A stretch of DNA of 35,290 bases from an uncultured Myxococcales bacterium (GTDB taxonomy: Bacteria > Myxococcota_A > Polyangia > Polyangiales > Houyiibacteriaceae), in the NCBI GenBank assembly GCA_965365555.1, contig CBDUCC010000001.1, positions 1 through 35,290 on the forward strand, read 5' to 3'. Numbering within the stretch: position 1 is the first letter of the stretch; every line of letters begins with the position of its first letter. Position numbers and translations under genes: made by a program. The notes under the pieces were generated by a model, which had not been told where the DNA came from, did not search any database, and saw only the letters and a list, made by a program, of their open reading frames with translations. Positions 7,134-28,307 of this stretch are shown piece after piece.

Positions 7134-8473
7134 CGAAGGATCCGAGCGCCGGTTCGTGTCGAGGCTGTATCGGGGTCCGCTACGTCGTTCGCTGCGGCGA
7201 TGTACGAGAACACGTCCGCCCCGCGGAACGAGTAGATCGCCTGCTTCGGGTCACCGACGTAGACCGCAGAGCCTTCGCCGTAGATGCTTCGAAAGATCGC
7301 ATACTGAACCGAATCGGTATCCTGGAACTCGTCGACCAGCGCCAACGGATACCCGCTGGCGATCGTCATGGCCGCCGACTCGCGCGCAGCGGCCGAACGG
7401 TCTGTCAACGAGCGGTGGACCGCGCTCAGGAGGTCGTCGTAGGAGAGTGTCCCGGTCCTTGCGGTGCGCGCCACGCGTTCGGATTCGACGTAGGAGAGGA
7501 AGCGCGTCTTGAAGGCGAAGACGGCGTAGTCGAGCATCGGTTGCACCTGCCTCGTCGCTTCGACGAGCGTTGCGCACGCGTCGAAGAACTGATGCTCCGG
7601 CTCCGCATGGCCGTTCTTCAGGCTCATCTCACCAGCGGCCAACTTCGGCAGGAAATCGGGCGAATCGTCGATGCCATCCTTGGCGAAATAGTCGTCGAGC
7701 TGTCTGCCCCAGGTCTCCATGCTCTTCTTCGGATACCGATTCCGGTGGAGACCCGGTTCGTCCCGAAGGATCTCGATTACCTGATCGCGCTGCTCGAACC
7801 AAGCAGAGGCCGCCGACCGCTTCGCCTCCAGGGCTCGGTCCATCGACCCGTCGTCCATCTCGATCGGCTCCGGTCCGACAACTCCGACTCCGGGCATCGC
7901 GCACTTGTTGGCGATCTCGGTAAGGTGCTTGGGAGTCACCTTCTCGTCGGCCAGGGCGCGCACCAGCCACTCGGGTTGCCTGTGCAGGTCCGACGCCCAG
8001 AAGTCGTTGGCGAGCGCCGCGTGAAGCGCGGATAGGTCTTCGGCGACTTCGAAATCGAAGTCGATTCCGAAGACCAGGGGATGGTCTTGAAGCAGGCGCT
8101 GGCAGAAGCCGTGGATGGTGAAGATGGCCGCCTGATCCATCGAACCCAACGCGGTTCGAAGCCGGCGCTCCAGTTCCGCCCGTCCGTGGTGCTCGCTTGC
8201 CTGCGAGAGAATGTCATCCAAGACGTCCGGTTCGCCGCCGCGCCCCTCGAGCCGAGCCAGAGCGTCGACGATGCGCTCTCGAGCGCGCGTGCGAAGCTCC
8301 GAGGTGGCCGCCCGCGTGTACGTCACGACCAGGATGTCCTTCGGACTAAGACCCTGTTCCACGATTCCGCGCACGAAGTACGTCGTGATCGTATAGGTCT
8401 TGCCCGTTCCAGCGCTGGCTTCCACCAGCGTTGGCGCATCGAGTGGAGCGAAGGCCGGGTGGGCGAGCGTCAC
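7127..8473 (-). CDS. recB: RecB N-terminal fragment (helicase 1A/1B), truncated by a frameshift
   Basis: GTG start overlaps the recC stop (GTGA). Walker A EASAGTGKTYTI, LALVDEFQDTD and VGDPKQAIYSFRGADVF are present. After ...AAANDVADP the frame runs 15 unrelated residues to a stop. Confidence 0.85.
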   Translation of the reverse strand: MTLAHPAFAPLDAPTLVEASAGTGKTYTITTYFVRGIVEQGLSPKDILVVTYTRAATSELRTRARERIVDALARLEGRGGEPDVLDDILSQASEHHGRAELERRLRTALGSMDQAAIFTIHGFCQRLLQDHPLVFGIDFDFEVAEDLSALHAALANDFWASDLHRQPEWLVRALADEKVTPKHLTEIANKCAMPGVGVVGPEPIEMDDGSMDRALEAKRSAASAWFEQRDQVIEILRDEPGLHRNRYPKKSMETWGRQLDDYFAKDGIDDSPDFLPKLAAGEMSLKNGHAEPEHQFFDACATLVEATRQVQPMLDYAVFAFKTRFLSYVESERVARTARTGTLSYDDLLSAVHRSLTDRSAAARESAAMTIASGYPLALVDEFQDTDSVQYAIFRSIYGEGSAVYVGDPKQAIYSFRGADVFSYIAAANDVADPDTASTRTGARILRW

Positions 8474-11400
8474 GACTCGCTCCGGTGCTCGAATAGCGGC
8501 CCATACACGGTCCGTGACGCCTCCGCGAATGCATCCAACCAGTCGCGGTCCTCAAAGGGGTCGTCTTCACCGAATCGGTACCGCAGCCGAGCGTCCCACT
8601 TCCGTCGCTCCCGATAGGCGTTCCTGGCCGCCGACAGAGCTTGGTCGGCGCCTTCGTCTAGCGATGCCGCGTACTCGAGCGATGCGCGCTCGATGAGCGG
8701 AACCGGTACCCGGAGGCTCTGCCAGTAGAGCTCGAGCAGTTTCGTAAGGTGCTCTCGCGGGCGCGAAACCTCTCGGTACGAGACCACCGACGGGCCTGTT
8801 TCCGATCCGCGGAGGACCAGGCAGGTTTCCCTCGGAAGCTCTGGGCTCTGTGCGGCGTTCATCAGCAGGTGTTCGACCCAGCTCGCAAGCTCCGCCTTGC
8901 GACGAGTGCGGGTGAAGCGGTCGAGGACTCGGGCACCTGGGTGGAGACCGTGGAGACGTGCTTCGACGACGCTCTGTGCCAGCCGGACGCTCAGCAGAGC
9001 ATGACCTGGCTCGGGGCCTGCTCGGAGCTCCGATGCGCGGTTGGCGACCGCCTCGATCTCGCGGCCGAGTCGCCGGCGCTCAATCCGTCCTGGCGTTCCA
9101 TCCGGAAACTCCGGTGCTGCCCGCAGGTACTCCTCCAGACGCTCTCCTCTCAGATTCGCGCGAAGAGCCGCGTTGCCCACGTTCGCCTGCTCGAGGCTAC
9201 CGATCTGGGTCAGTGCATCGCTCGGCTCGTGGAGTGCCGATTCCTCGAAGCTCGCGCGGACGACGCGATCCAAAAACTCCCCGATCGGGTTCCAGAGCCA
9301 GTTCGTCAGCTCGAATGCGCTGATCGTTTCGGGCTCCTCCTCCACCGTCGCGACGAGCTCGACCCGGGATCGCTGCCCCGGTCCTCGCTGAAGCGTCTCC
9401 GCGAGCTCGAGGTTTCGCTCCGAAAAGCTGCGAGGCAGAGACTCTCCGGCAAAGTAGCCCGGATCGAACGCGTGCAGGGGGTGTGATGTCCAACCGAGCA
9501 CGTCCTCGTCGTTCGCCTCCGACCGATAGTAGCGGTTGACCGTCTCGCAGAGCTCCCAAACCACCGGCGATGGGTTCGACATCCGCGAACGACTTCTGTC
9601 CGCGCCGCCAAAGGTGATGAGCAGACGGTCGCGCGCGCAGAGCAAGGCCTGCAGAAAGGAATGACGATCGTCGCTGCGCCGATTCCGGTCGCCGGGCTGA
9701 TACGTGCCCCGTCTGAGGTCGAAGCTCGGGCGCGTGTCCGGTCGTGGAAAAGCGTCCTCGCTCATGCCGAGGAGACAAACGACGCGGAACGGGACCGAGC
9801 GGAGCGGCACCAGCTCCGTCAGCGTGACGCCGCGGCGAAGAAAGCCGATCGCCGGCGTCCTGTCGATCAGCAGACGGGTCAGCTCCCGTCGCACCGTTGC
9901 CAGCGACAGGGGCGCCTCGAACCCGGTTCTGACTGCCGAGTCGCGAACGTCTGCGATCGAAGTGCGAAGCACGTACAAGGCAGCGCTGCTCTCGTCGTCG
10001 TCGGAGAAAAGTCGCTCGCACAGCTCGTCGAGCTCGTCTGCCCAACGTCCGATGGAGAGTCGTCCGCGGGTGCGGGCATGGAACGCGAACAGGACCTCCA
10101 AGAGGGCGGAGAGACGTGCCACGAGGCCGATGTCGTCGAGCGTCGGGGCACCTCGGGGCAGCACTCCGCCGAAGACCGTGCTCGCGTCCGGCTCGGAGGC
10201 GAATCCGAGAAACAGTCGGGCAATCCCTTCGCGCCAGGTGTGAAGGCCCTCCGCCGGAAAACCTTCCTGGTCGCGATGTCGTCCGTCGATTCCCCAGCGA
10301 ACTCCTGCGGCAGCCGTCAAATCCGTGAGTCGCACCCGCTCATCCGGGCTGAAACGGAACTCGGTCCGAAGGGACTTCCCGTCCATCAAACGGACGAGAT
10401 CCAGCACGGAGAAACGCGAATCGAGGAGCTCGAGCACGACCAGGAGATCGTCGTAGAACGACGCGTCCTCTCGCGAGCGCCGATCGTGGACGTCGAACGG
10501 AATCGGGTGCTCGGATTGCTGGCCGAAGACCGCGCGGAAGAGCGGCGCGTAGGTCTCGAGATCCGGCGCCATGACGACGATGTCCTCGGGTCGAAGCGTC
10601 GAGTCCTCCTCCAGGGCTCTACGAATCTCATCGTACAGCACTTGCACTTCGCGCAGTGGGTCCGGGCATTCATGCAACGAGATCGAGTCGTCGGTCCCCT
10701 GGACGATGGAGCGCTCGGCCTGTGGTGGAGGTGCCGCGAACTCCAGGATGTCCCTCTGAACTGCGCTCAACAGGGTGGAGCGGCCTGGGGTCACGAACGC
10801 TTCGCGCTCGACCTCGAAGGGAACCGCCTCGCTGGCATCCAGCAGGAGCTTTTGGAAGTCGCGCGAGAGCCCGCCTGCGCCGGCTAGCAACGGGTGACCG
10901 TCCGCCGCCGCATCGCTCATTTGGAACGAGAGCTGGGCGTCCGCTCGAACGCCTGCGTCGCCACGATACTCCGAGGACGGCTCGAGCACGTACAGCGTCG
11001 TGGGGACCTTTCTCGAAAGCTCGCCGAAAAACCGAACGAACGAAGGAGGAAGGGTCTCCAAAGAGAACAGATGGAGTCGCCGAAAGGGGACTCTGGCGGC
11101 AACGTCCTCGGAACGAAGCCGAGGAAGAGCGCGCTCGATGCGGGAGCTCAAATCGTGGGGGCCAAGCACCTCGGTGACACGGCGCCAGAGCTCGGCCTGC
11201 CAGCCATTGCGCTTGCCTTTCTGCCATGCCGCGAGGAGATCGGGTCGATAGACGGCGTAGTCGTCGAATGCGTTCGCGACGCTGAGCGCGAGTCGGAGAA
11301 CCCGATCCGGGTCCGCCGGGCTGCCGAGGTAGCCCTCCAGCCCCGCAGGAGGAGATTCGTCGAGTAAGCGGGCGATCGTCCATCGCAAGCGCTCGCGACC

Positions 11401-11655
11401 GTAGGCCTTCGCGTTCTCGTCGGCCTCCTCATCGAGTCCGGCGAGAGCCTGGTCGACCGCCGCGCGGGGAAATGGAAACGCCGGGTTCGCCCAAACGCCG
11501 AGACGCATGGCGAGCTGCAGGGAGAGCCAGTGTTCGATCCCTTTGCTCTGGACGACGATCGTTTCCTTCGCGAACGGCGGAAGTGGTTCTTCGCGAACCT
11601 TGAAAGCAAGGGCGTCCGCCAGGGTTTCCGTACGGTTGCTGCGGATGAGCTCCAT
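8470..11655 (-). CDS. recC: Exodeoxyribonuclease V gamma subunit RecC
   Basis: The 1061-aa length, the N-terminus MELIRSNRTETLADALA (E. coli RecC starts with a similar SNR-containing block) and the position directly upstream of recB with a 4-nt overlap all fit. The call rests on size, synteny and remembered similarity, not on a catalytic motif. Confidence 0.85.
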   Translation of the reverse strand: MELIRSNRTETLADALAFKVREEPLPPFAKETIVVQSKGIEHWLSLQLAMRLGVWANPAFPFPRAAVDQALAGLDEEADENAKAYGRERLRWTIARLLDESPPAGLEGYLGSPADPDRVLRLALSVANAFDDYAVYRPDLLAAWQKGKRNGWQAELWRRVTEVLGPHDLSSRIERALPRLRSEDVAARVPFRRLHLFSLETLPPSFVRFFGELSRKVPTTLYVLEPSSEYRGDAGVRADAQLSFQMSDAAADGHPLLAGAGGLSRDFQKLLLDASEAVPFEVEREAFVTPGRSTLLSAVQRDILEFAAPPPQAERSIVQGTDDSISLHECPDPLREVQVLYDEIRRALEEDSTLRPEDIVVMAPDLETYAPLFRAVFGQQSEHPIPFDVHDRRSREDASFYDDLLVVLELLDSRFSVLDLVRLMDGKSLRTEFRFSPDERVRLTDLTAAAGVRWGIDGRHRDQEGFPAEGLHTWREGIARLFLGFASEPDASTVFGGVLPRGAPTLDDIGLVARLSALLEVLFAFHARTRGRLSIGRWADELDELCERLFSDDDESSAALYVLRTSIADVRDSAVRTGFEAPLSLATVRRELTRLLIDRTPAIGFLRRGVTLTELVPLRSVPFRVVCLLGMSEDAFPRPDTRPSFDLRRGTYQPGDRNRRSDDRHSFLQALLCARDRLLITFGGADRSRSRMSNPSPVVWELCETVNRYYRSEANDEDVLGWTSHPLHAFDPGYFAGESLPRSFSERNLELAETLQRGPGQRSRVELVATVEEEPETISAFELTNWLWNPIGEFLDRVVRASFEESALHEPSDALTQIGSLEQANVGNAALRANLRGERLEEYLRAAPEFPDGTPGRIERRRLGREIEAVANRASELRAGPEPGHALLSVRLAQSVVEARLHGLHPGARVLDRFTRTRRKAELASWVEHLLMNAAQSPELPRETCLVLRGSETGPSVVSYREVSRPREHLTKLLELYWQSLRVPVPLIERASLEYAASLDEGADQALSAARNAYRERRKWDARLRYRFGEDDPFEDRDWLDAFAEASRTVYGPLFEHRSES

Positions 11656-14640: not shown

Positions 14641-14697
14641 TGCCCGGTCCATGTGGTTACCTGCCTCACCTCGGGTAGGAAGAGGGCGACCGACGGG

Positions 14698-17600
14698 ATG
14701 AAGAAAGCGATTGTTGGGTTGGACGTAGGGTCCACGACCGTGAAAGCGGTCATCGTCGACCCAGAGACGAAGGACATCGTCTGGAGCGACTATCAGCGCC
14801 ACCATACGAAGCAGGCCGAGTGCGTGCTGGACTTCATGGAGCGCATCGAAGCCATCGTCGCGGAGGAAGGCTGCGACGACATCCGTGTCTTTGCGACCGG
14901 CTCTGGAGCGAAACCGCTCGAAGGTCCTCTCGGAGCCAAGTTCGTGCAGGAGGTCAACTCGGTCACTCTCGCCGTCGAAACCTTGCATCCGGATGCTGGC
15001 TCGGTGGTCGAGCTCGGCGGTCAGGATGCCAAGATCATCGTCTTCAAGGAGAACGAGAACACCGGCGACAAGACCGCCATCGCATCGATGAACGACAAGT
15101 GCGCGTCGGGTACCGGAGCGACGATCGACAAGTGCATGATCAAGGCCGGCATGCCACCGGAAGAGACCCTCGAGCTTCACTTCGACGACCAACACTTGCA
15201 TCACGTCGCCGCCAAATGTGGCGTCTTCGCCGAGACGGACATCGTGAACTTGGTGAAGACGGGTATTCCGTCGAACGAGATCATGTGCTCGCTCGCCGAT
15301 GCGATCGTGATGCAGAACCTCTCCGTGCTCACGCGTGGCAACACGCTCCGGCACAAGGTCTTGTTGCTCGGCGGTCCCAATACCTTCTTGCCATTCCTCC
15401 AAGAGTGTTGGCGCAAACGCATTCCCGAAACCTGGGACGAGCGGGGCTACGACTACCCGAAAGACGTTCCCATCGAGGAGCTGATTCCGGTTCCCGACAA
15501 TGCCGCGCTCTATGCGGCCTACGGCGCGGTGATGTACGGGATGCACGAGCCGCCTCAGGTCGGTGTGTTCGACGGCCTCGAGGGACTACGCCGTTACATT
15601 ACCGAGGGTCGCAAGGAACGGCTCGGAGAGAGCGCCGGGCCGCCGCTTGCCGAGGACGAAGCCGAGCTGGAGCAGTTCCTCGGGGCTTATCGGATTCCGA
15701 TGTTCATCGAGCCCGAGATCACGAGCGATAGCGTCCGGGCCGTGATTGGTCTCGATGGTGGAAGCACCTCGTCCAAGGCGGTTTTGCTTAGCGAGGAGGG
15801 CGAGGTCCTGATGAAGGCGTATGCCCTCTCGAAGGGCAACCCCATTCAGGACACCAAGGAGCTCTTGGCCGAGCTTCGCGGACGAATGCACGCCAAGGGC
15901 GTCGAGATCGAGGTGCTCGGCTTCGGCGCCACCGGATATGCGGCCGACGTATTGGAAGAGTGCGTGCGTGCCGACGTCAACATCGTCGAGACCGTGGCGC
16001 ACATGATGAGCGCGACACACTATTTCGGCGACGTCGACGTGATCTGCGACATCGGTGGACAGGACATCAAGGTTCTGTTCATGGAGAACGGGGACATCAA
16101 GACGTTCAAGCTGTCGAACCAGTGTTCGGCCGGCAACGGAATGCTACTCCAGGCGATGGCCGACCAGTTTGGGCTTCCTGTGACCGAGTATGCCGACAAC
16201 GCGTTCAAGGCCGATCTTGCTCCGAAGTTCAGCTATGGCTGCGCAGTCTTCCTCGACACGGATCGAGTGAACTTCCAGAAGGAGGGCTTCAGCAAGGAGG
16301 AGTTGCTCGCCGGGCTGGCTCAGGTGCTCCCAAAAAACGTTTGGCAATACGTGGTCGGCGTTCCGCGTATGGCTGCGCTCGGACGCAAGTTCGTCTTGCA
16401 GGGTGGCACTCAGTACAACCTCGCCGCCGTGAAAGCCCAGGTCGACTACATCAAGCAGCGGGTTCCGAACGCGGAAGTGTTCGTGCATCCACATTCGGGC
16501 GAAGCGGGTGCAATCGGGGCGGCGATGGAAACTCTTCGAGTCGTGAAGCGGCGAGGGCATTCGACGTTCATCGGTCTCGATGCAGCGATCGATCTCGAGT
16601 ACCAGACCAAGAACGACGCGAGCACGACCTGCCATTTCTGTGCGAACGAGTGCTCTCGGACCTTCATCGATGCCTTCCGTCCCGACGGCACGACGAGCCG
16701 GTACATCAGCGGATTCTCCTGCGAGAAGGGGATGGTCGAGTCGAAGGATGCGATGGAGTCGCTGGTCAAAGAACGTCGCAAGATCATGAAGGAATTTCCG
16801 AATCTCGTGACCTACGAGGGGCTGAAGGCCTTCAAGCGAATCGCCGGCGTTCAGCCGCTACCCGAGGCCGGCACGCCGGTCGAGGACGTGAAGGTCGACC
16901 GTAAGTTTTTCGGCGAGATCGAGCGCACGAAGTTCACGCGTGGCTTCGAGCGCTCGTCCGATCAGGCCGCGACGAAGCGCGCCCAGTGGCGAGTTGGCAT
17001 TCCTCGCGTCCTCAACATGTACTCGACCGCGCCGTTCTTCCGAACCTATTTCGAGGTGCTCGGCGTCCGTCCCAAGAACATCGTCTTCAGCGATCCGAGC
17101 TCCGAGGAGATGTTTGCAGAGGGAGGCAAGTACGGGTCGGTCGATCCCTGCTACCCCTCCAAGGTCGCTCAGGCGCACTTCCATCAGCTGTTCTTCCACA
17201 AGCACCAGCAGTCTCCGTTCGATGCGATCTTCTTTCCGATCCTCACGCACGTGCCGAACTTCGTCACGGGCACCGTCGACGATACAAGCTGCCCGATCGT
17301 CGCGGGCACTCCGGATGTCATGAAGGCTGCATTCACGAAGGAGCAAGACTACTTCGGCAATCGCGGCATCGAGTATCTGGCGCCGGCGTTCAGCTTCTCC
17401 GAACCGACCCTACTCCGGCGCGCGATGTTCGAGGCGTTTCAAAACGTCCTCGGCATCACCGAGGACGAGAGCGATTTTGCCGTTCGAGAGGGGCTCACTG
17501 CGCTCGAGCGGTTCGATCAAGACCTTCAAGACAAAGGCCGCGCGATCCTCGATCAGGTCGAGTACGAGAACAAGGTGGCGATCTTGGTCCTCGGGCGTCC

Positions 17601-18291
17601 GTACCACCTCGACCCCGGGCTTCACCATGGAATTCCAGATGAATTCCAAGTGCTTGGGTATCCGATTCTGAGCATTCGATCGATACCGAAAGACCCGGAA
17701 TGGCTCCGACGGTTCTACGGCGACGAAGAGGAAGACGTTCTTGGCGTCAACGACGTCTGGCCGGAGAACTACTCCGCCAACTCGGCCCAGAAGGTCTGGG
17801 CTGCGAAGTTCGCGTCCCGGCATCCGAATGTCGCCATCCTCGACCTCAGCAGCTTCAAGTGTGGCCACGATGCTCCCACCTACGGAATCATCGACAGCAT
17901 CGTTGCAACGAGCGGTGTTCCTGCTTCCTCACTTCACGACATCGACGCGAACAAGCCCGGTGGCTCGATCAAGATTCGCGTGAAGACTTACGCACACTCG
18001 CTAAAGCTACGCGAGGAGCACCTCGAGGACGTCGCTGCACGCAAGCATGAGCTTCAGCGCCGCATCGACGAGAAGAGACTCGAGCTGCTGCGGATGAAGC
18101 AGCAACAACTGGCAGCGCAGCGGCGCGCCGACCTCGGGCTCGAACGGCAGATCCACGAGCTCGCCGACAAAGTGAACCAGTACCGTATCGCAGCGCGTGC
18201 CGAGGAGGACGGCCTCGCATCGGATTCGGTATCGGAAGGATTGATTCGACTCGGTAGGAAGACGAAGGACGGGAAGCTCGTCCGGGTGTGA
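14698..18291 (+). CDS. Fusion protein with two BcrAD/BadFG (HgdC-like) activase ATPase repeats plus a DUF2229-like domain and a coiled-coil tail
   Basis: The ORF opens at 14653, but ATG 14698 (MKKAIVGLDVGSTTVKA) follows GGAAGAGGG and coincides with the start of the ASKHA phosphate-1 motif. Repeat 1: GLDVGSTTVKA, ATGSGA, GGQDAKII, NDKCASGTG. Repeat 2: GLDGGSTSSKA, GFGATGY, GGQDIKVL, SNQCSAGNG, HSGEAGAIGAA. The C-terminal half carries WRVGIPRVLNMYSTAPFFRTYFEVLG, DPCYPSK, SCPIVAG and FKCGHD, which I associate with DUF2229/COG3580. Confidence 0.85.
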   Translation: MKKAIVGLDVGSTTVKAVIVDPETKDIVWSDYQRHHTKQAECVLDFMERIEAIVAEEGCDDIRVFATGSGAKPLEGPLGAKFVQEVNSVTLAVETLHPDAGSVVELGGQDAKIIVFKENENTGDKTAIASMNDKCASGTGATIDKCMIKAGMPPEETLELHFDDQHLHHVAAKCGVFAETDIVNLVKTGIPSNEIMCSLADAIVMQNLSVLTRGNTLRHKVLLLGGPNTFLPFLQECWRKRIPETWDERGYDYPKDVPIEELIPVPDNAALYAAYGAVMYGMHEPPQVGVFDGLEGLRRYITEGRKERLGESAGPPLAEDEAELEQFLGAYRIPMFIEPEITSDSVRAVIGLDGGSTSSKAVLLSEEGEVLMKAYALSKGNPIQDTKELLAELRGRMHAKGVEIEVLGFGATGYAADVLEECVRADVNIVETVAHMMSATHYFGDVDVICDIGGQDIKVLFMENGDIKTFKLSNQCSAGNGMLLQAMADQFGLPVTEYADNAFKADLAPKFSYGCAVFLDTDRVNFQKEGFSKEELLAGLAQVLPKNVWQYVVGVPRMAALGRKFVLQGGTQYNLAAVKAQVDYIKQRVPNAEVFVHPHSGEAGAIGAAMETLRVVKRRGHSTFIGLDAAIDLEYQTKNDASTTCHFCANECSRTFIDAFRPDGTTSRYISGFSCEKGMVESKDAMESLVKERRKIMKEFPNLVTYEGLKAFKRIAGVQPLPEAGTPVEDVKVDRKFFGEIERTKFTRGFERSSDQAATKRAQWRVGIPRVLNMYSTAPFFRTYFEVLGVRPKNIVFSDPSSEEMFAEGGKYGSVDPCYPSKVAQAHFHQLFFHKHQQSPFDAIFFPILTHVPNFVTGTVDDTSCPIVAGTPDVMKAAFTKEQDYFGNRGIEYLAPAFSFSEPTLLRRAMFEAFQNVLGITEDESDFAVREGLTALERFDQDLQDKGRAILDQVEYENKVAILVLGRPYHLDPGLHHGIPDEFQVLGYPILSIRSIPKDPEWLRRFYGDEEEDVLGVNDVWPENYSANSAQKVWAAKFASRHPNVAILDLSSFKCGHDAPTYGIIDSIVATSGVPASSLHDIDANKPGGSIKIRVKTYAHSLKLREEHLEDVAARKHELQRRIDEKRLELLRMKQQQLAAQRRADLGLERQIHELADKVNQYRIAARAEEDGLASDSVSEGLIRLGRKTKDGKLVRV

Positions 18292-18302
18292 AGGGGCTGA
18301 AC

Positions 18303-20198
18303 ATGGCTGACGGATTCGAAATCGACATCGAGAAGGAGCTCGCCGCTTTCGAAGCAGAAGAGCGGGCGAAGCTGGGTCTCCAAGAAGACCGCGAACAATG
18401 GACGGATTCGATGGTCAATCCGTTCTTTTCGGCGAAGGAGCGCCCCACCACGACGATTCTCAACGGAGGCCTCACCATGGCCCACGACGAGTTCGTCGCC
18501 TCGGCGCTCAAGGGCATCGGCTACAACACACGCCCGATGGACTGTGCCGACGTCGCGTCCCTCCGCTTCGGCAAGGAGTTCGGCAACAAAGCGCAATGCA
18601 ACCCGACCTACTTCACCGTGGGCAACCTCGTCAAAGAGCTCTGCCGGCTTCGCGACGAGGAGGGCCTGAGCCCCGAAGAGATCATCCAGAACTACGTCTT
18701 CCTGACGGCTGGGGCCTGCGGTCCATGTCGCTTCGGGATGTACGTCACCGAGTACCGCAAGGCGCTTCGGGACGCGGGCTTCGACGGCTTTCGCGTCGTT
18801 CTCTTTCAGCAGCAGGCGGGTTTCAAGCAGGCGACCGGTGAAGAAATTGGGTTGGTCCTCAACCCGCAATTCTTCATGGCGCTCGCGCGCGGGTTGTTCG
18901 CAGGAGATGTCCTCAACGTGCTGAGCTATCGAATCCGTCCGTACGAGGTCGAGGAAGGTGCGACCGATCGTGCGATCGCCGAGGCGAAGCGCGAAGTGCG
19001 TGAGGCCCTCGAAAGGAACGATAGCGTCCTGCGAGCTCTATGGCGCGGGCGGAAGTACCTCGAGGCGGTCGAAGTCGATCGTCTTCAGGCCAAACCCAAG
19101 GTCGCCATCATCGGCGAGTTCTGGGCCATGACGACCGAGGGCGACGGCAACTATCACCTTCAGCGTTTCGTGGAGCAGGAGGGCGGCGAAAACGACATCC
19201 AGACGCTCGTGAACTGGCTGCTCTACACGCTCTGGGAGATGCGCCACGACACCGAGCGACGCATGACCCTGCGCGACACCGACGAGTCGTACTACGGCCT
19301 GGAAGGCTCGGACGTGGGCTACAAGATGGCCGGCGTCTGGTTGGGTGAGCTCGCCCTTCGGGCGACGTTCGCAGCGTTCTGTAAGGTCTCCGGCCTCACG
19401 GGGAACAAGCTCCCCGACATGGATGAGATCGCGAAGGTTGGACACAGCTTTTACAACAACGAGCTTCGTGGCGGCGAAGGCCATATGGAGGTCGCGAAGC
19501 TGGTTCTCAACGTGGCCAAGCAGAAGGCCCACATGACGCTCAGCGTGAAGCCGTTTGGTTGCATGCCGAGCTCCGGCGTGTCCGACGGGATTCAGACGGT
19601 TATCACCGAGCTGCACCCGGACGCGATCTACTGCCCGGTCGAGACGAGCGGGGATGGTGCCGTCAACTTCTACTCGCGCGTCCAGATGTACATGTTCAAG
19701 GCGCGCGAGCGCGCGCGGGCCGAGTATCGGGATGCGCTGGCTCACTACGGAATTTCCGAAGAGCAAGCGCGCGAGTTCTTGAAAGACAACCCGCGCTATA
19801 CGAGAACCTTCTACAAGGCACCGCACGTCGTTGCCGGGACCGGGGCTGACCTCATTCACGAGATCGGCCCGCTGGTCGGAAAGAGTCGCGCCCAGCGAGC
19901 CAAGGTTCATGCGGCACGGGCGCTTGCTCGAGGCAGGGGCCTGTTCACCGAGGACCTGCGCGCGGCGAAGGCGACCTACGACAAGATGGCTCCGTATCTC
20001 CCGTCGCTCGGACGATTGGTCTACGTCGAGCTCAAGGAGAAGGTGCCGGCCCCGAAGCAGGCCTGGGCGACCTTGATGCGGCGTGCCGTTCCGAAGGCAG
20101 AGGACGAGGCCAACCTACCGAGCGCGCACGAGTATATTGATGCGCCGACTCCACGGTCGGAACCCGAAGCGTCGCAACGGCTCGACGTATTGGGCTGA
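18303..20198 (+). CDS. Cys-motif partner protein, 2-hydroxyacyl-CoA dehydratase D-component-like (COG3581-type)
   Basis: ATG 18303 is preceded by GAAGGGG. Alternatively, GTG 18288 overlaps the upstream stop as GTGA. Motifs: QCNPTYF, LTAGACGPCRFGMY, SVKPFGCMPSSG and CPVETSGDG. It is tightly coupled to the activase fusion. Family assignment is from memory of these motifs. Confidence 0.65.
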   Translation: MADGFEIDIEKELAAFEAEERAKLGLQEDREQWTDSMVNPFFSAKERPTTTILNGGLTMAHDEFVASALKGIGYNTRPMDCADVASLRFGKEFGNKAQCNPTYFTVGNLVKELCRLRDEEGLSPEEIIQNYVFLTAGACGPCRFGMYVTEYRKALRDAGFDGFRVVLFQQQAGFKQATGEEIGLVLNPQFFMALARGLFAGDVLNVLSYRIRPYEVEEGATDRAIAEAKREVREALERNDSVLRALWRGRKYLEAVEVDRLQAKPKVAIIGEFWAMTTEGDGNYHLQRFVEQEGGENDIQTLVNWLLYTLWEMRHDTERRMTLRDTDESYYGLEGSDVGYKMAGVWLGELALRATFAAFCKVSGLTGNKLPDMDEIAKVGHSFYNNELRGGEGHMEVAKLVLNVAKQKAHMTLSVKPFGCMPSSGVSDGIQTVITELHPDAIYCPVETSGDGAVNFYSRVQMYMFKARERARAEYRDALAHYGISEEQAREFLKDNPRYTRTFYKAPHVVAGTGADLIHEIGPLVGKSRAQRAKVHAARALARGRGLFTEDLRAAKATYDKMAPYLPSLGRLVYVELKEKVPAPKQAWATLMRRAVPKAEDEANLPSAHEYIDAPTPRSEPEASQRLDVLG

Positions 20199-22576: not shown

Positions 22577-23782
22577 ATGCCCCAACAGGCGTTTCTCAAG
22601 GGAATCCAAGAGTACTGGACGGCCCTCGGCCAACCCGGCGAGCCACCCGAGCTCGGTGAGTCCCGGCTCGATGCATTCATCGATCTCCTACACGTCACTG
22701 AAGAGGCCGAACACGCGTTCGCTCTTCTCAACGTTTTGGAGTCACCCTACGCCGGTATCGCCGTCGGTGACGCGAGCCGTCCGTGGCGGCTGCATTGGGC
22801 GATCCAGGTTGGAGAGGTCGAGCCGTTCGTAGCGCCAGACCTCGACGGCTTGATCTTCCTCGCGGACACGATCGCCGATCATGAAGGTCGCCATCGTGTC
22901 TACACATTGAAGGACGGAATGCGTGGCGACTTCGAGTTCGCCGATCTTTCCGGTGTCTTGCAATGGATGGCGGCGCAGGTTCGACACGCCAAGGGCGAGC
23001 TCGACGACGCGGCGCTTCAGGAGGTCCAGAGCGAGGCATCTGCTCTGCTCGACGACGCCTGGGAAGAGGGTCCTACGTCGGCGATTTTCATCGTCGAGGA
23101 GCTGCTCGAAACGCCGCTCTTCGAGGCATGGGATGCGATCTCCCGCGGACAGTGGCCGTTGGTGGAGTCGGACGGCAGCGATGCACCGGTCGATCGCGAA
23201 GATGGCTGGCAGCGACGCCTCTCGCTCTGGCTGACTCGCCGTTTCCTGGCGAACCGAAGCCTCGAGCTTCCGCAGGACATTGCCGTCTCGGATATGGACG
23301 CGGTCCACCGGGCCCTGGTCGATCATCTGATCGATTTCGAGCAGGCAATTCACGGCGGAGACGTGCCGAAGATCATCGACGAGGCCGCCGCCGGCGGCGA
23401 TTCGCGTGTTGCAGCGCTGGCGGCCGAGTGGACCGAACGTCACGACGCGTGGCGGACGGCAGCCAACGTTCCGGCTCCAGACGAGGAAAACCTGTTCGAG
23501 GAAGAGCCCCCGCCTTTTCAGCACACCCCCTTCACCCGCAAGCTGATGCATGCGCTCTCCCAGTCGCTCGACGGGATGGTCGCCCGCGGGGAGCTCGAGC
23601 TCGACCCAGATCGCAAGGAGGCCCTCCTGATCGAGCTCGTGACGGCAGGATCCGACGCGCGCTCCATCAAGCACATGCTCAAGAAGCTCACCGCGACGCT
23701 CGTCGACAGTGAGCACGTCGAGGAAATCTACCCGAGCGACGACAAGATCCAGGACCAGCTCAAGACCGATCTTGGCGGTTAG
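22577..23782 (+). CDS. Hypothetical acidic protein, 401 aa, no family recognised
   Basis: A long ORF with high GC3 and normal amino-acid composition (Asp/Glu/Leu/Ala-rich). There is no TM segment or signal peptide. The antisense ORF 22742-23794 is Arg/Leu/Val-biased and is judged a shadow. Confidence 0.6.
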   Translation: MPQQAFLKGIQEYWTALGQPGEPPELGESRLDAFIDLLHVTEEAEHAFALLNVLESPYAGIAVGDASRPWRLHWAIQVGEVEPFVAPDLDGLIFLADTIADHEGRHRVYTLKDGMRGDFEFADLSGVLQWMAAQVRHAKGELDDAALQEVQSEASALLDDAWEEGPTSAIFIVEELLETPLFEAWDAISRGQWPLVESDGSDAPVDREDGWQRRLSLWLTRRFLANRSLELPQDIAVSDMDAVHRALVDHLIDFEQAIHGGDVPKIIDEAAAGGDSRVAALAAEWTERHDAWRTAANVPAPDEENLFEEEPPPFQHTPFTRKLMHALSQSLDGMVARGELELDPDRKEALLIELVTAGSDARSIKHMLKKLTATLVDSEHVEEIYPSDDKIQDQLKTDLGG

Positions 23783-24765
23783 GCGTCGCCCCAAACGGAT
23801 GGCGATGGGCGAAGCAGCCCCGAATCGCGCTCATGCTGAGCACCGGTCCGGTCGGACTCCAGGAGCATGGGGCCGTCGAGATCGACATACCTCGCAAAGA
23901 CCGTGAGCAAGAGCGCCGGCTCGATGGCGAGCGAGGTGCTGACCATGCAGCCGACCATCAGGTCGATGCCGAGCTGCCGAGCTCGTCGCACGCAGGCCAG
24001 CGCCTCGCTGATCCCTCCGGCTTTGTCGAGCTTGACATTCACCATTTCGTAGCGCCCCTGCACCTCTCCGAACGAGCTGCGATCGTGAAACGACTCGTCC
24101 GCGCAGATCGGGACCGAGTGTTCGATTGCTTCGAGGGCCGAATCCGCTCCTTCGGGAAGAGGCTGTTCGAGCACCCCGACCCCGAATCGGGGTAGTTCTG
24201 GAAGCCAGGCGCGCGTCTGATCAGGCGACCATGACTCGTTTGGGTCCACGACGAGCTCGGCCTGCGGGGCGGCGGCGTGCACGGCCTCGATCCGCTCGAG
24301 ATCGGCGCCGCCGCCGACCTTGACCTTGATCACCTTCGCGTGCGCGAATGCCTTGGCCGCTTCGTGCATCGCCGTGGGTGTCCCGAGGCTGACCGTCCGC
24401 ATCGTCGTTACCGGCTCCGGCGGCTCGTCCCACCCGAGCAGCGACCAGGCGGGCTTGCCTGCGAGCTTCGCCTCGAGATCCCAGAGCGCGCAGTCGAGCG
24501 CGTTGCGGGCCGCGCCCCGGGCCATTCGCGAAAGCACTGCTCGGGCCGTGGCGACGTCCGTCCAGCCTCGGGCGGCCCGCTCGATCGCTTCCGTAACCGA
24601 GCCGGTCGACTCGCCATAGCGGGCATAGGGCACGCACTCTCCGCGTCCGACCTCGCGCTCGTGCTGCAGCTCCACCACCAGCACGCGCGCGTCCGTTCGG
24701 GACCCGCGCGCGATTCGGAAGCCTCCCCGAATCGGCCAGGTTTCTGCCCGGACGACAGCCTTCAT
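23779..24765 (-). CDS. Dipeptide epimerase (L-Ala-D/L-Glu epimerase-like), enolase superfamily
   Basis: MR/MLE-subgroup hallmarks are present: capping domain WPIRGGFRIARGS, KxK motif VIKVKVGG, and metal ligands in VVDPNESW, LEQPL and CADES. The second catalytic Lys lies in VNVKLDKAGG. Confidence 0.85.
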   Translation of the reverse strand: MKAVVRAETWPIRGGFRIARGSRTDARVLVVELQHEREVGRGECVPYARYGESTGSVTEAIERAARGWTDVATARAVLSRMARGAARNALDCALWDLEAKLAGKPAWSLLGWDEPPEPVTTMRTVSLGTPTAMHEAAKAFAHAKVIKVKVGGGADLERIEAVHAAAPQAELVVDPNESWSPDQTRAWLPELPRFGVGVLEQPLPEGADSALEAIEHSVPICADESFHDRSSFGEVQGRYEMVNVKLDKAGGISEALACVRRARQLGIDLMVGCMVSTSLAIEPALLLTVFARYVDLDGPMLLESDRTGAQHERDSGLLRPSPSVWGDA

Positions 24766-24774
24766 GGCATCGCC

Positions 24775-25740
24775 CTAGTCCTCGACGCCGGTTGCCTCTT
24801 TGATCGCCTTCGGGCTCAGCGTCTTGCAAACGAACGTGTGAACATCCCAGAGGTCGCGCGGGCGCTGCCCGGCTTCCTGCAAGAGCTCCATCGTCTTCTT
24901 TGCGGCCTGATTGAACTGCTCGTACGTCGTTGCATTCGGCGTCGTGTCGTACTTCGGGTCGATGTCGAGGATCAGCGCCTGCTTCTTGAAGAAGGTCGGC
25001 TTCACGAACACGTGATCGGCCGGGTAGACGAGTGCTGGAAGCAGCGTCGCCAGCGGCCAGGTCGCGCCCCCTTCGATATCCAGTGCCGCCACGAGCGAAT
25101 CGAAGCGGATCGGATAGGTCCGCTCGCCGTAGAGCAGCTCGTAGAGCGACTGCGCAAAAGTCTCTCGCATGTCCTCAGGCATGTTCTTGAAGCGCGTGGC
25201 TTCGGCCTTCTGCGTGGTGCTCTTCGTGCTTGTCAGAAACTCGAAGATCATCTGGTGGAAGTCCTCGTAGTTGCCAGCATCGATCAGCTCCTGCAGGTTC
25301 TTCTGCGAAAGGAGATCTTCGGCCCGTTCGAGGGCGGCTTCCTTGAGCTTCTCCGCTCCCTTGGTGCCGGGCACGCCGCGCTCGGCCTTGATGTAGCTCT
25401 CGTCTTCGAAGCCGACGGGGTAGAGCTTCATGAAGTAGGCGACCTGCTGTGCGAAGGAGATGTCCGGTTTCTTCGGGGGCGCCTTCGACTTGCGGCTGGA
25501 GCCCGGCGGGGGCGCCTGGTTCCGGCGGGCGAGCCGATCGATGCGGACGGCCTCGTTGGTCTGCACCTCGATGATCTCCATCTTGTGCCAGTAATCGGGG
25601 CGGAAGCTGCGCTCTGCTCCATCTTCGAAGAGGAAAGTGCGCATGTCCGGGATCTCCAACACCAGCACCGAGCGCCCCCAGTCCTTGCGGCTGACGTGCT
25701 CGAAAATTCGCGGTGGGACGGAAGGATTAGTCTCTGCCAT
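24775..25740 (-). CDS. Hypothetical protein, 321 aa, no family recognised
   Basis: High-GC3 ORF ending 9 nt upstream of the epimerase start. It has an N-terminal beta-like region, a basic Pro-rich linker (RRNQAPPPGSSRKSKAPPKKPD) and a helical C-terminal domain (YELLYGERTYPIRFDSLVAAL...WPLATLLPALVYPADHVFVKP). Confidence 0.6.
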   Translation of the reverse strand: MAETNPSVPPRIFEHVSRKDWGRSVLVLEIPDMRTFLFEDGAERSFRPDYWHKMEIIEVQTNEAVRIDRLARRNQAPPPGSSRKSKAPPKKPDISFAQQVAYFMKLYPVGFEDESYIKAERGVPGTKGAEKLKEAALERAEDLLSQKNLQELIDAGNYEDFHQMIFEFLTSTKSTTQKAEATRFKNMPEDMRETFAQSLYELLYGERTYPIRFDSLVAALDIEGGATWPLATLLPALVYPADHVFVKPTFFKKQALILDIDPKYDTTPNATTYEQFNQAAKKTMELLQEAGQRPRDLWDVHTFVCKTLSPKAIKEATGVED

Positions 25741-25907
25741 CGATTACAGTTCCTCGAGAATCGGGTGGAAGCGGGCCTCGGAGCCGCGAAAAACGAGCCG
25801 GTCGTGTATCACGGACCCGACGCTCTTGCATCCGCTTGCGGTCGCCAGGGTGTAGCCGTACGAGCACTGTCCTGCAAGGTCCCGTTCTCATTGACGTTTG
25901 AGGAGCT

Positions 25908-28307
25908 ATGACATCGTACGATGCTGCGCGAGTTGGGCTCGCGGCCATGATCCTCTGGTGGGCGGTCTTCGGTTCCGCCTGTGATCGGCCGACGGCACCG
26001 GAATCGAACGGCTTGCCGGAGGCGACCGTCGCTTCGGCCAGCAACCCCAAGCTCCCCGGGTTCGATCGGGTGGATGCCGAGCTTCAGGCCCGGCTCGAGG
26101 CCGCGGTTCGAGCGAAGGGCCCAGACTACCGGCCGCGTACCGAGCATCTGCGGTCGGATGGAAGCCCCGAGTTCACCAATCGTCTGATCGAGCAGTCGAG
26201 CCCGTACCTATTGCAGCATGCTCACAATCCGGTGAGCTGGTACCCATGGTCCGACGAGGCGTTTGAGCGCGCCAGGCGCGAAAACAAGCCGGTGTTTCTC
26301 TCGGTGGGATACTCGACCTGTCATTGGTGCCACGTCATGGAACGCGAGTCGTTCGAAGACGAGGAGATCGCCGCCCTTCTCAACCGGCACTTCATCGCGA
26401 TCAAGGTCGACCGCGAGGAGCGGCCCGACGTCGACAGTGTCTACATGACGGCGGTCAATCTCCTCACGGGTCGAGGTGGCTGGCCCATGACGGTGATCAT
26501 GACCCCCGACAAGGAGCCCTTCTTCGGCGGAACCTACTTCCCGCCGCGCCCTGGCGTCCGAGGCGCTCGGACGGGTTTGATCGACATCTTGAACGAGATG
26601 CAGGCCCGGTATCGAGATGACCCTGGCTCCGTCGCTGCCCGTGCGCAGGAGATCAGTCAGCAGGTCGAGCGCGCCTCCTTCCTTCAGCCTGGCCCTGGTG
26701 TGCCGAGCGACACGACGATCGTGGTCGCGACGAACCAGCTCGCCGCTCGGTTCGATCGCGTCGATGGCGGATTCACCGGGGCGCCGAAGTTCCCCCAGCC
26801 TGCTCGGCTCACCCTCCTACTCCGCTATGCGCGCCGGAGCGGCGATCGGGGCGCAGCGGCGATGGTCATGACCACACTCGACCGTATGGCTGCAGGCGGA
26901 ATCTACGACCATGTGGGCGGCGGCTTCCACCGGTACTCGACCGATGCCAAGTGGCTCGTGCCTCACTTCGAGAAGATGCTCTACGACAACGCACAGCTCG
27001 CGGCACTGTACATCGAGGCCTGGCAATGGAGCGGAGACCCACGTCACGCGCGCGTGGCGAGGGAGATTCTCGACTACGTCCTCCGCGAAATGACCTCGGC
27101 CGACGACGCGTTCTTCTCGGCGACGGACGCGGACAGCCCCACACCAAGAGGTGATGAAGAGGAGGGCTGGTTCTTCACCTGGACGCCAGACGAGCTCCTG
27201 CGCGCGCTAGGGCCAGAAGAGGCCGATTTAGTCTCCGATGCCTATGGCGTGAGCCCTCAGGGAAACTTCGAGGGACGAAACATCCTCCATCGCGTCAAGA
27301 GCGATCAAGAGCTCGCCAAGCAGCGCCGCACATCCGCCGGTGCGGTCGCCGAGCGACTCTCCGGCGCGCGGGCTCGTCTCTACAAAGCGCGCTCCAAGCG
27401 GCTTCCACCCCTTCGCGACGACAAGATCATTGCGGCATGGAACGGGCTCATGATTTCAGCGTTGGCTCGGGCCGGGTGGGCGCTTGCCGAGGATCGATAC
27501 GTCGATGCCGCCTCCCGTGCGGCACACTTCGTGCTCGACAGAATGCGTGACCCGTCGGATCGGCTCGTTCGAACCTCCCGGGATGGCGCGCACTCCGGCC
27601 TGGCGTTCCTCGATGATCATGCCTTCATGGTTGCCGCCTGCCTCGACCTCTACGAGACGACCGGTGATCCTGCATGGCTCGAGTCCGCGCTGGCTCTTCA
27701 GCGGGATCAGGACGAGTGGTTCTCCGACCCGAGTGGCGGCTATTTTCTCGCGGCAAGCGACGCTGAGGATCTGCTGGTACGCGAGAAGCCGATCTACGAC
27801 GGAGCGGTACCCTCCGGCAATTCGGCGGCGGCTGGCAACCTGCTTCGCCTCCACGACCTCACCGCTCAGACCGAGTGGCGAACCCGGGCAGAGCGCTTGT
27901 TCGCCTCGGTCTCTCTGCGGCTCACTCGCGCGCCAACCGGATCGCCCCTCCTGCTCGCAGCGCTCGACCGCTATTACGACGCGCCGCTCGAGGTCGCGAT
28001 CATCGCTCCGAAAGGCGAGCGTGACGGACTGGGATTGGCGCAAACGCTTCGCGCCAGCTACGTGCCCAACAAGGTGTTCGTGGTCCTCGATGAACCGGCA
28101 GCACTATCCCAGTCGACCCTGGTGCCCTGGCTCGAGGCGAAGCGTTCGATCGATGGACGCGCGACCGCCTACGTGTGCGAACGCGGCCGATGCGAGCTGC
28201 CGACTTCGGATCCGAACCGATTCGAAAAGCAGCTCGCAAAGCGCACGCCCTACCCGAGCTTCAGCGAAAGTGCGCCGCCCCGCTTGCCGTTCGAGAGGCC
28301 ACGATGA
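25908..28307 (+). CDS. Thioredoxin-domain protein of the DUF255/YyaL (SPATA20-like) family, with a C-terminal six-hairpin glycosidase-like domain
   Basis: [54 protein letters not shown] is the DUF255 signature, including CHWCH. The protein is about 800 aa. The N-terminal hydrophobic segment with FGSAC suggests a lipoprotein or anchored form. SD GAGGAG lies upstream. Confidence 0.9.

Follow-up and report, generated by a model that had tools for sequence, protein, structure and literature searches.

The stretch of DNA analysed here (the window; 35,290 nt from contig CBDUCC010000001.1 of assembly GCA_965365555.1, assigned to the Houyiibacteriaceae within the Polyangiales) carries two adjacent genes on its forward strand that combine ATPase modules of the dehydratase-activator family with two catalytic-type modules. 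A two-gene module had been proposed at 14698-20198 by a reading of the DNA alone, hereafter the original prediction. Our analysis confirms this observation far beyond chance: the coordinates are exact and both open reading frames (ORFs) are intact. Comparison with known proteins makes it very probable that the two genes constitute one ATP-driven Fe-S reductase or dehydratase with the architecture of PlsA/PlsR and Ger. The only characterised enzymes of this architecture make bacterial plasmalogens or alkyl ether lipids, regarded as a trait of anaerobes, and the module appears to represent a conserved, uncharacterised sister subfamily whose cultured hosts, Sorangium, Polyangium, Brevibacillus and Paenibacillus, are aerobes.

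Architecture of the two genes

The genes, their modules and the evidence that delimits each of them are as follows.

14698-18291, forward strand: gene 1, 1197 aa, fused activase and first catalytic module in the order B-B-Cys4-Red1-tail (intact ORF, Pfam matches, colinearity with Listeria)
14698-15597, forward strand: ATPase module B1 (ASKHA fold) with predicted cluster cysteines C135 and C174 (MbdP, 9gai_C, against residues 6-226; motifs)
15742-16536, forward strand: ATPase module B2 with predicted cluster cysteines C476 and C515 (best PF01869 stretch, residues 350-610; HgdC, 1hux)
16630-16722, forward strand: Cys4 motif C645-x2-C648-x3-C652 ... C675, a putative metal or Fe-S site (invariant in 60 orthologues)
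16990-17997, forward strand: Red1, a DUF2229 catalytic-type module with C818, C865 and C1055 (PF09989; all three cysteines invariant in 60 orthologues)
17998-18288, forward strand: helical, coiled-coil-like tail of gene 1, specific to the subfamily (heptad-like sequence rich in E, K, R, L and Q)
18292-18302, forward strand: 11-nt spacer with AAGGGG, the ribosome-binding site (Shine-Dalgarno) of gene 2 (read directly from the sequence)
18303-20198, forward strand: gene 2, 631 aa, second catalytic module (Red2, the PlsR equivalent; intact ORF, BLASTP alignment to Listeria)
18414-19742, forward strand: Red2 core, residues 38-480, with C99, C139, C142 and C420 (AlphaFold2 model, Foldseek, conservation)
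19743-20195, forward strand: C-terminal helical extension of gene 2, its last ~90 aa variable (predicted helices, conserved blocks)

The frame of gene 1 is intact from 14653 to 18291, with a conserved start at the ATG at 14698 (MKKAIVGLDVGS...) and a TGA stop at 18289-18291. Pfam recovered both the two activase repeats and the DUF2229 region that had been read from the translation: PF01869 (BcrAD_BadFG) matches two stretches (E 7.7e-70) and PF09989 (DUF2229) residues 765-994 (E 6.4e-50). Among the NCBIfam models, the acyl-CoA dehydratase activase TIGR00241 matches with E 6e-54, and a sequence search of the PDB returned HgdC (1hux; residues 349-613, E 1.8e-25), MbdQ/MbdP (9gai), HadI (4eht) and DCCP-R (7yyl_E). 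These matches bear out the domain series of an ATP-driven, low-potential electron-injection enzyme, as had been proposed.

The nucleotide-binding motifs of B1 and B2 are intact, and B1 carries GLDVGSTTVKA, ELGGQDAK, MNDKCASGTG and AAKCGVFAETD. In an alignment of 60 full-length orthologues C135, C174, C476 and C515 are invariant, two in each ATPase module, at MNxxC(A/S)xG and xxC(G/A)VF. By these motifs the modules are of the activator type, each contributing two cysteines to a predicted bridging [4Fe-4S] cluster. All cysteines of the ATPase modules, the Cys4 motif and Red1 align with cysteines of proteins from Listeria, Fusobacterium, Collinsella and Haliovirga, the set of pls-type proteins used for comparison. 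The gene 1 tail is present in Brevibacillus and absent from these four.

Gene 2 is translationally adjacent, as predicted: its ATG at 18303, conserved among homologues, which share the N-terminus MADGFEIDIEK, follows 11 nt after the TGA of gene 1, with AAGGGG in between. The four motifs singled out in the original prediction are all there (QCNPTYF, GACGPCRFGMY, KPFGCMPS and ETSGDG). No Pfam or NCBIfam model matched gene 2 even at E=10, PF06050 (HGD-D) included, nor did PF06050 match gene 1 at an E limit of 0.01, so that of the two profiles expected for the pair DUF2229 was found in gene 1 and HGD-D in neither gene. A PDB sequence search with gene 2 alone and with the family profile likewise gave no real match, only a chance one to RbfA and a non-significant one to the CGxCxPCR motif of NuoF. 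The latter concerns residues 131-147 (window ~18693-18743), YVFLTAGACGPCRFGMY, which resemble the [4Fe-4S]-binding motif of NuoF, ETCGQCTPCRVG, with a non-significant E of 0.57.

Structure prediction was more informative. The AlphaFold2 model of full-length gene 2 had a pLDDT (predicted local distance difference test) of 67.8 and gave weak Foldseek matches (E 0.026). Trimmed to residues 38-480, with 50 homologues, it reached a pLDDT of 76.3 and a predicted template modelling (TM) score, pTM, of 0.79. The top 20 Foldseek matches of this core are without exception catalytic chains of DCCP, HadBC, MbdON or BzdNO (E 1.3e-5 to 1.3e-2), at probabilities of 0.96-1.00 against <0.35 for the next matches, with TM scores of merely 0.34-0.47. 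They comprise DCCP (7yzm, 7yyl and 6eno; E 1.3e-5, TM 0.42-0.44), the 2-hydroxyisocaproyl-CoA dehydratase HadBC (3o3m), the 3-methylbenzoyl-CoA reductase MbdON (9gai and 9g87) and BzdNO (8s02). Judged by the model, gene 2 has the catalytic-subunit fold of 2-hydroxyacyl-CoA dehydratases (HAD), benzoyl-CoA reductases (BCR) and DCCP, with a three-cysteine site. Its assignment to COG3581/HGD-D-like proteins therefore stands only in part: no profile recovers it, but the Foldseek matches and the BLASTP alignment to the C-terminal half of the Listeria protein relate it to this group.

Among relatives down to 28% identity C99, C142 and C420 of gene 2 are invariant and C139 is ~90% conserved, and C444 is conserved in close Myxococcota homologues only. 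The pls-type proteins hold the equivalents of C99, C142 and C420 without C139, reading GGGCR where the window has CGPCR. Red1 and Red2 themselves give a weak profile-profile match (hhalign probability 60%, E 8.6e-5) with cysteine motifs 1 and 2 in register, and the PlsR-type gene of Fusobacterium contains a sub-threshold DUF2229 fragment. Together, this weak internal paralogy and the fragment fit a pseudo-heterodimer like HgdA/HgdB. Beyond the core, helices are predicted at residues 450-482, 529-580 and 584-595, and the blocks APH..AGT..DL.H and APYLPAL of the extension recur in Myxococcota homologues; the extension is much shorter or missing in the Fusobacterium, Collinsella and Haliovirga proteins.

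Relatives, hosts and neighbours of the module

PlsA/PlsR had been named as the closest analogue of the pair, and full-length colinearity with a pls-type protein of Listeria supports this. PlsA/PlsR of Clostridium perfringens and the single-gene PlsA of Enterococcus faecalis, Lactococcus cremoris and Bifidobacterium longum yield plasmalogens in Escherichia coli (PMC12838417), and Listeria, which has pls orthologues, makes plasmalogens anaerobically (PMC9702350). L. monocytogenes encodes one 1475-aa pls-type protein (L003:3013-7440), found by tblastn against the plasmid collection PLSDB; we took this protein as the pls orthologue on the basis of the literature (PMC9702350) and of its being the single such locus in the L. 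monocytogenes records searched. Gene 1 is colinear with residues 5-983 of this protein (29% identity, E 8e-123) and gene 2 aligns by BLASTP to residues 997-1256 and 1346-1402 (26% identity, E 7e-23); the window gene pair is thus colinear with one Listeria polypeptide. As to the collection itself, several of the PLSDB entries NZ_CP030101.1, NZ_CP084075.1, NZ_CP154629.1 and NZ_LR134399.1 are whole chromosomes or large pieces of them (L. monocytogenes 2.9 Mb, F. vincentii 2.1 Mb, Acetoanaerobium 2.6 Mb).

Proteins similar to that of Listeria occur in Collinsella aerofaciens (1479 aa, with an adjoining TetR gene) and Haliovirga abyssi (1449 aa). In Fusobacterium animalis a gene for 975 aa (2x PF01869 and PF09989) precedes, by 1 nt, a gene for 404 aa. 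The original prediction held the domain split of the window, with DUF2229 staying attached to the activase, to be unusual. It is the ordinary one, because Fusobacterium is split at the same point (975 and 404 aa), the plsA part of Ger is described in a preprint as 2x PF01869 and PF09989, and the 4.2-4.3 kb of the C. perfringens plsA-plsR region (PMC12838417) fit this layout as well. Nor does the lack of HGD-D set the window apart: Red2 of Fusobacterium, Listeria, Collinsella and Haliovirga gave no match to this model either, so its recovery discriminates poorly among such proteins.

Judged via the Listeria and Fusobacterium homologues, the module thus shares with PlsA/PlsR (C. perfringens CPE1194-1195) the order B-B-Cys4-Red1(DUF2229)-Red2, the split point of the two-gene form, all cysteine motifs and a full-length colinear alignment. 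An association with TetR regulators is a further likeness, as reported for facultative anaerobes; a TetR/AcrR gene adjoins pls in E. faecalis (PMC9702350). The differences are nevertheless considerable. The module is only 20-35% identical to pls-type proteins and separate from them, its Red2 has CGPCRFG, with an extra cysteine, in place of GGGCR and no Pfam match at all, and its cultured hosts are aerobic Polyangia and Bacilli. It also holds ~450 extra residues in the post-Cys4 insertion, the gene 1 tail and the N- and C-terminal extensions of gene 2 (combined length 1828 aa, against 1379 aa in Fusobacterium). With Brevibacillus the window shares insertions of 14 aa in B1 and of 50-60 aa after Cys4, the gene 1 tail of ~90 aa, the N-terminal helix of gene 2 and the CGPC motif; the long C-terminal helical extension of gene 2, a further feature of the subfamily, is much shorter in Brevibacillus.

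The second characterised system of this kind is Ger of Thermotoga maritima (Tmari_0479) and Desulfatibacillum alkenivorans (SHJ90043), a 'modified PlsA' that makes sn-1 alkyl ethers anaerobically (PMC13159169). Compared by description, it has the same BBD architecture and a Pfam-poor C-terminal half; it differs in being one polypeptide with small PF09989/PF06050 fragments C-terminally (PMC13159169), of which gene 2 has none. DCCP (7yzm, 7yyl, 6eno) is the best structural match to gene 2, and DCCP-R matches the ATPase module; however, DCCP is a homodimer served by a separate ATPase, whereas the window module is a Red1/Red2 pair with its ATPase fused and without sequence match to DCCP. With HgdAB/HgdC, HadBC/HadI, BzdNOPQ and MbdONPQ the module has in common the ATPase family, the catalytic fold class and the principle of ATP-driven electron injection, but not the HGD-D match, the subunit organisation or the CoA-ester context.

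An exhaustive search of representatives with gene 2 retrieved 1825 cluster representatives (50% identity) at E<=1e-3, about 296 of them at E<=1e-30. Most of these relatives stand alone, with lengths of 420-640 aa. The subfamily also includes fusions, both as BB-Red1-Red2 (P0124, 1579 aa) and in the permuted order Red2-BB-Red1 (P0181, 1623 aa). A search seeded with the Listeria protein found relatives only in Listeria, Paenibacillus and Bacillus, and none in Enterococcus. The Listeria-type fused protein is found at ~60% identity in many Paenibacillus species and Paenibacillus tyrfis (L080) has the window-type split module, so that both subfamilies are found within this genus.

To survey orthologues, one genome per GTDB species was scanned; at least 587 stretches with relatives were found, and the best 80 were analysed. 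The closest homologues, with gene 2 up to 90% identical, come from metagenome-assembled genomes (MAGs) labelled Polyangiales, Myxococcales or Myxococcota, and the best 80 loci are nearly all from Polyangia (Polyangiaceae, Sandaracinaceae, Kofleriaceae, Haliangiales and Labilithrix), in line with the myxobacterium-like host that had been suspected. Cultured Polyangia among them are Sorangium cellulosum So0157-2, Polyangium jinanense and Polyangium sp. 6x1, and the Bacilli are represented by Brevibacillus borstelensis, Paenibacillus tyrfis and an Anaerobacillus MAG; the Brevibacillus laterosporus module was retrieved from the plasmid collection. Named genomes of Myxococcus, Corallococcus, Stigmatella and Anaeromyxobacter are missing from the best 80, which is no proof of absence. 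Two labels look out of place: a MAG contig labelled 'uncultured Coxiellaceae' (L009, CAXMND010000080.1) shares the synteny of the window at 81% identity, and a 'Klebsiella pneumoniae' MAG (L081, CAMBIK010000032.1) has the module at 56% identity. Both labels are likely wrong through binning contamination.

Across the 80 loci gene 1 orthologues are 61-89% identical (~68% between Myxococcota and Bacilli), and in 74 of them gene 1 immediately precedes gene 2 in the same orientation; four of the others have no upstream DNA and two differ. Clustering of the neighbouring ORFs brought out a single recurrent partner, a TetR/AcrR regulator. It lies <=1 kb upstream in 19 of the 52 loci with enough upstream DNA, divergently in 18 of these 19, and <=8 kb away in 29 of the 52; no TetR neighbour is present in the window or in its nearest relatives. 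Nine Kofleriaceae/Haliangiales loci have, immediately after gene 2 and in the same orientation, genes for glutaredoxin-fold proteins without CxxC. Examples of these, one or two per locus, are L079:11890-12363 and L070:3574-4035 and 4058-4717, a lineage-specific third or fourth gene of the operon.

The absence of a CoA-ester or aromatic-degradation context, noted in the original prediction for the window, extends to its relatives. There are no CoA-transferase, acyl-CoA or aromatic-degradation genes in the window, and in a Pfam census of 122 + 129 ORFs (251) around the orthologous loci no CoA-transferase, ligase or acyl-CoA gene recurs (one acyl-CoA dehydrogenase and one carboxyltransferase were seen). 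The orthologues at the 80 loci do not, then, sit consistently inside a known CoA-ester pathway.

Candidate reactions

Because of the conserved features and of what is established for HgdC/HgdAB, BCR and DCCP, we propose a mechanism in which the ATPase modules of gene 1 would pair as an intramolecular pseudo-dimer, with C135/C174 and C476/C515 holding a [4Fe-4S] cluster. This bridging cluster would be reduced by a donor of the ferredoxin or flavodoxin type, and ATP hydrolysis would send one electron of very low potential into the Red1/Red2 pseudo-heterodimer (C818, C865 and C1055 / C99, C139, C142 and C420), where the reduction of a carbonyl would pass through a ketyl-type intermediate. If PlsA/PlsR and Ger are a guide, the most likely substrate is the sn-1 acyl ester of a membrane glycerolipid; its reduction and dehydration would give a vinyl ether (plasmalogen), and further reduction an alkyl ether. 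Nothing in this scheme requires a new mechanism. As for the electron donor, one metagenome contig may hold a hint: its protein P0122 (L089:3436-7251) joins a homologue of gene 2 (53% identity) to a GltD-like NAD(P)H oxidoreductase (Fer4_20 and Pyr_redox_2) and to a ferredoxin domain with 2x[4Fe-4S], and the gene immediately before it (L089:1-3417) is a homologue of gene 1.

As the reaction of the module we favour the conversion of a membrane-lipid ester into a vinyl or alkyl ether by ATP-driven reduction, and give it about an even chance. The architecture and its cysteine motifs point towards it, and so do the colinearity with the Listeria protein, the split shared with Fusobacterium, the fold of gene 2, the constancy of the pair, the lack of recurrent CoA-ester genes, the parallel in TetR neighbours and, anecdotally, some lipid-related neighbours. 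Several observations weigh against it. The first is distance. Between the window and Brevibacillus the ATPase modules are 74% identical, Red1 66% and Red2 60%; between the window and the pls-type proteins the values fall to 32-35%, 26-29% and 20-25%, although the pls-type proteins share 41-53%, 33-47% and 26-40% among themselves. With 20-35% identity to proteins that are closer to one another (26-53%), the window module is by sequence a separate subfamily outside the clade of the pls-type proteins compared, and not an orthologue, a separation that rests on few sequences and an identity matrix, no tree. We would therefore describe it as working like PlsA/PlsR and Ger, as far as sequence can tell, while belonging to an uncharacterised subfamily of its own. 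These values come from the proteins of Listeria, Fusobacterium, Collinsella and Haliovirga, a set distinct from the experimentally characterised C. perfringens Q8XL48/Q8XL47, E. faecalis Q835P9, T. maritima AGL49404 and D. alkenivorans SHJ90043.

Further points on the same side concern the active site, the neighbours and the hosts. The extra Red2 cysteine of the CGPC motif could imply that the clusters are arranged differently. TetR regulators are very common, and those of Polyangia and Collinsella have the helix-turn-helix alone in common. Lipid-related genes do occur next to the module: in Brevibacillus laterosporus it is followed, in its own orientation, by a diacylglycerol-kinase-like gene, a monogalactosyldiacylglycerol synthase gene and a gene for a lysophospholipase-type hydrolase; Paenibacillus tyrfis has a cardiolipin synthase gene and Sorangium a phospholipase/carboxylesterase-family gene; and in a Myxococcota genome of 9 Mb genes for a phosphatidylinositol-specific phospholipase C, a GDSL lipase and a hydrolase lie upstream of the module. 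These neighbours are anecdotal. Known PlsA-type enzymes are largely oxygen-sensitive. The cultured hosts, by contrast, are aerobic; the myxobacteria are all obligate aerobes except Anaeromyxobacter (PMC9131029). Even within the characterised group, finally, PlsA and Ger are indistinguishable by sequence according to specialists (PMC13274423).

A serious alternative, to which we give rather less than an even chance, keeps the class and mechanism and changes the substrate: a non-glycerolipid small molecule (a carbonyl, unsaturated or aromatic compound) would be the target of a DCCP-like or new radical reductase or dehydratase, and TetR would sense this compound. Here the separate position of the subfamily (20-35% identity) and the aerobic hosts count in favour, as do the four rather than three conserved cysteines in Red2, the recurrence of TetR where no lipid-specific neighbour recurs, and the glutaredoxin-fold genes downstream in Kofleriaceae. 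DCCP chains are also the best structural matches, and we know of no physiological substrate for DCCP. On the other hand, DCCP has no match at the sequence level, and its Foldseek scores lie close to those of HadBC, MbdON and BzdNO. Moreover, B-B-Cys4-Red1 plus Red2 with these cysteine motifs was otherwise seen, among the proteins found, only in pls-type proteins, and the characterised members of this architecture act on glycerolipid esters (PMC12838417, PMC13159169). Were the substrate not a lipid, the module would stand for a new reaction of ATP-driven radical Fe-S chemistry in aerobes.

If the substrate is a lipid ester, as we favour, the product could be a saturated alkyl ether, making the module Ger-like and not PlsA-like; we consider this specific outcome unlikely. 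It would suit myxobacteria, across whose suborders alkyl ether lipids are considered common: elbD-type alkyl ether genes occur in all three (PMC9131029). One group has tied two activation modules (BB) to alkyl-ether producers (PMC13274423), and the preprint reads BBD-only matches in MAGs of non-anaerobes as Ger homologues without the second reduction domain. Yet the Listeria, Fusobacterium and Collinsella proteins are also BB, PlsA and Ger are inseparable by sequence (PMC13274423), and the Ger sequences lie outside our comparison set. For surveys that count 'BBD-only Ger homologues' the window offers a caution in any case, as its second module sits in the next gene, invisible to Pfam.

That the pair is a classical 2-hydroxyacyl-CoA dehydratase or benzoyl-CoA reductase with its activator is very improbable, and we reject it: NCBI does name homologues '2-hydroxyglutaryl-CoA dehydratase' and the ATPase modules do match HgdC, HadI and MbdQ, but neither gene has PF06050, the benzoyl-CoA reductase subunit models of NCBIfam score far under their cut-offs, the tandem activase is fused to a catalytic module, unlike HgdC/HgdAB or BcrABCD, and CoA-transferase, ligase and acyl-CoA genes are missing from the window and not recurrent in the 80 loci.

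Returning to the reduction of a lipid ester, the hosts give this reading its interest. The module may be an oxygen-tolerant or micro-oxically used reductive ether-lipid synthase in obligately aerobic Polyangia and some aerobic Bacilli, a tentative proposal that we regard as somewhat doubtful. Polyangia correspond to the former Sorangiineae and Nannocystineae, and CarF, the enzyme of the other route, is an O2-dependent desaturase. Among known enzymes the PlsA of L. cremoris is active even aerobically, which its authors link to a longer C-terminal helix (PMC12838417). Reviewers have noted that CarF is limited to the Cystobacterineae and inferred from this that plasmalogens are probably restricted to that one suborder (PMC9131029), a view on which the module bears directly. 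If the module is such an oxygen-tolerant or micro-oxically used synthase, the 'anaerobic' route to vinyl or alkyl ethers would be spread widely among aerobes, and complementary lineages of myxobacteria would between them have both known routes. Among the papers searched, none was found that links myxobacteria to plsA-type genes, and nothing specific on ether or vinyl-ether lipids in Sorangium and Polyangiaceae. The novelty lies in a conserved relative of 'anaerobic-type' ether-lipid enzymes in aerobic Polyangia and Bacilli.

Flanking genes and further observations

The flanks of the module are as described in the original prediction, with polyamine genes on one side and a cytochrome c peroxidase on the other. 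Upstream, on the opposite strand, lie a recBCD cluster, an SRPBCC protein gene and a carboxy(nor)spermidine dehydrogenase/decarboxylase-like pair, made up of a saccharopine-dehydrogenase-like and an Orn/DAP/Arg-decarboxylase-like gene. Downstream lies a convergent gene for a di-haem cytochrome c peroxidase, and beyond it are genes for a histidine phosphatase and for a flavin reductase. Scans of the window for Rfam families, tRNAs and promoters or terminators returned nothing relevant.

In Brevibacillus laterosporus the stretch upstream of the module on the same strand (L004:731-4125) holds split dehydratase genes of the lanthipeptide/thiopeptide type (Lant_dehydr_N, Lant_dehydr_C) and a gene for an M50-like peptidase. 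We rejected a link between these genes and the module, as this is one locus and the neighbour analyses showed no recurrence; they are probably an unrelated adjacent cluster.

Within the recBCD cluster of the window, recB appears to be split on the reverse strand (5004-8473) into 7127-8473 (UvrD-helicase N part, 448 aa) and 5004-7133 (UvrD_C and PD-(D/E)XK nuclease, 709 aa), which overlap by 7 nt and sit between recC (8470-11655) and recD (3299-5017). The apparent split could reflect a frameshift, a sequencing error or a genuine division of the gene. Sizeable ORFs without Pfam match are found at 24775-25740 and 33767-34663 on the reverse strand and at 21-1010, 24277-25911 and 22577-23782 on the forward strand, the last of which adjoins the module in its four closest relatives too.

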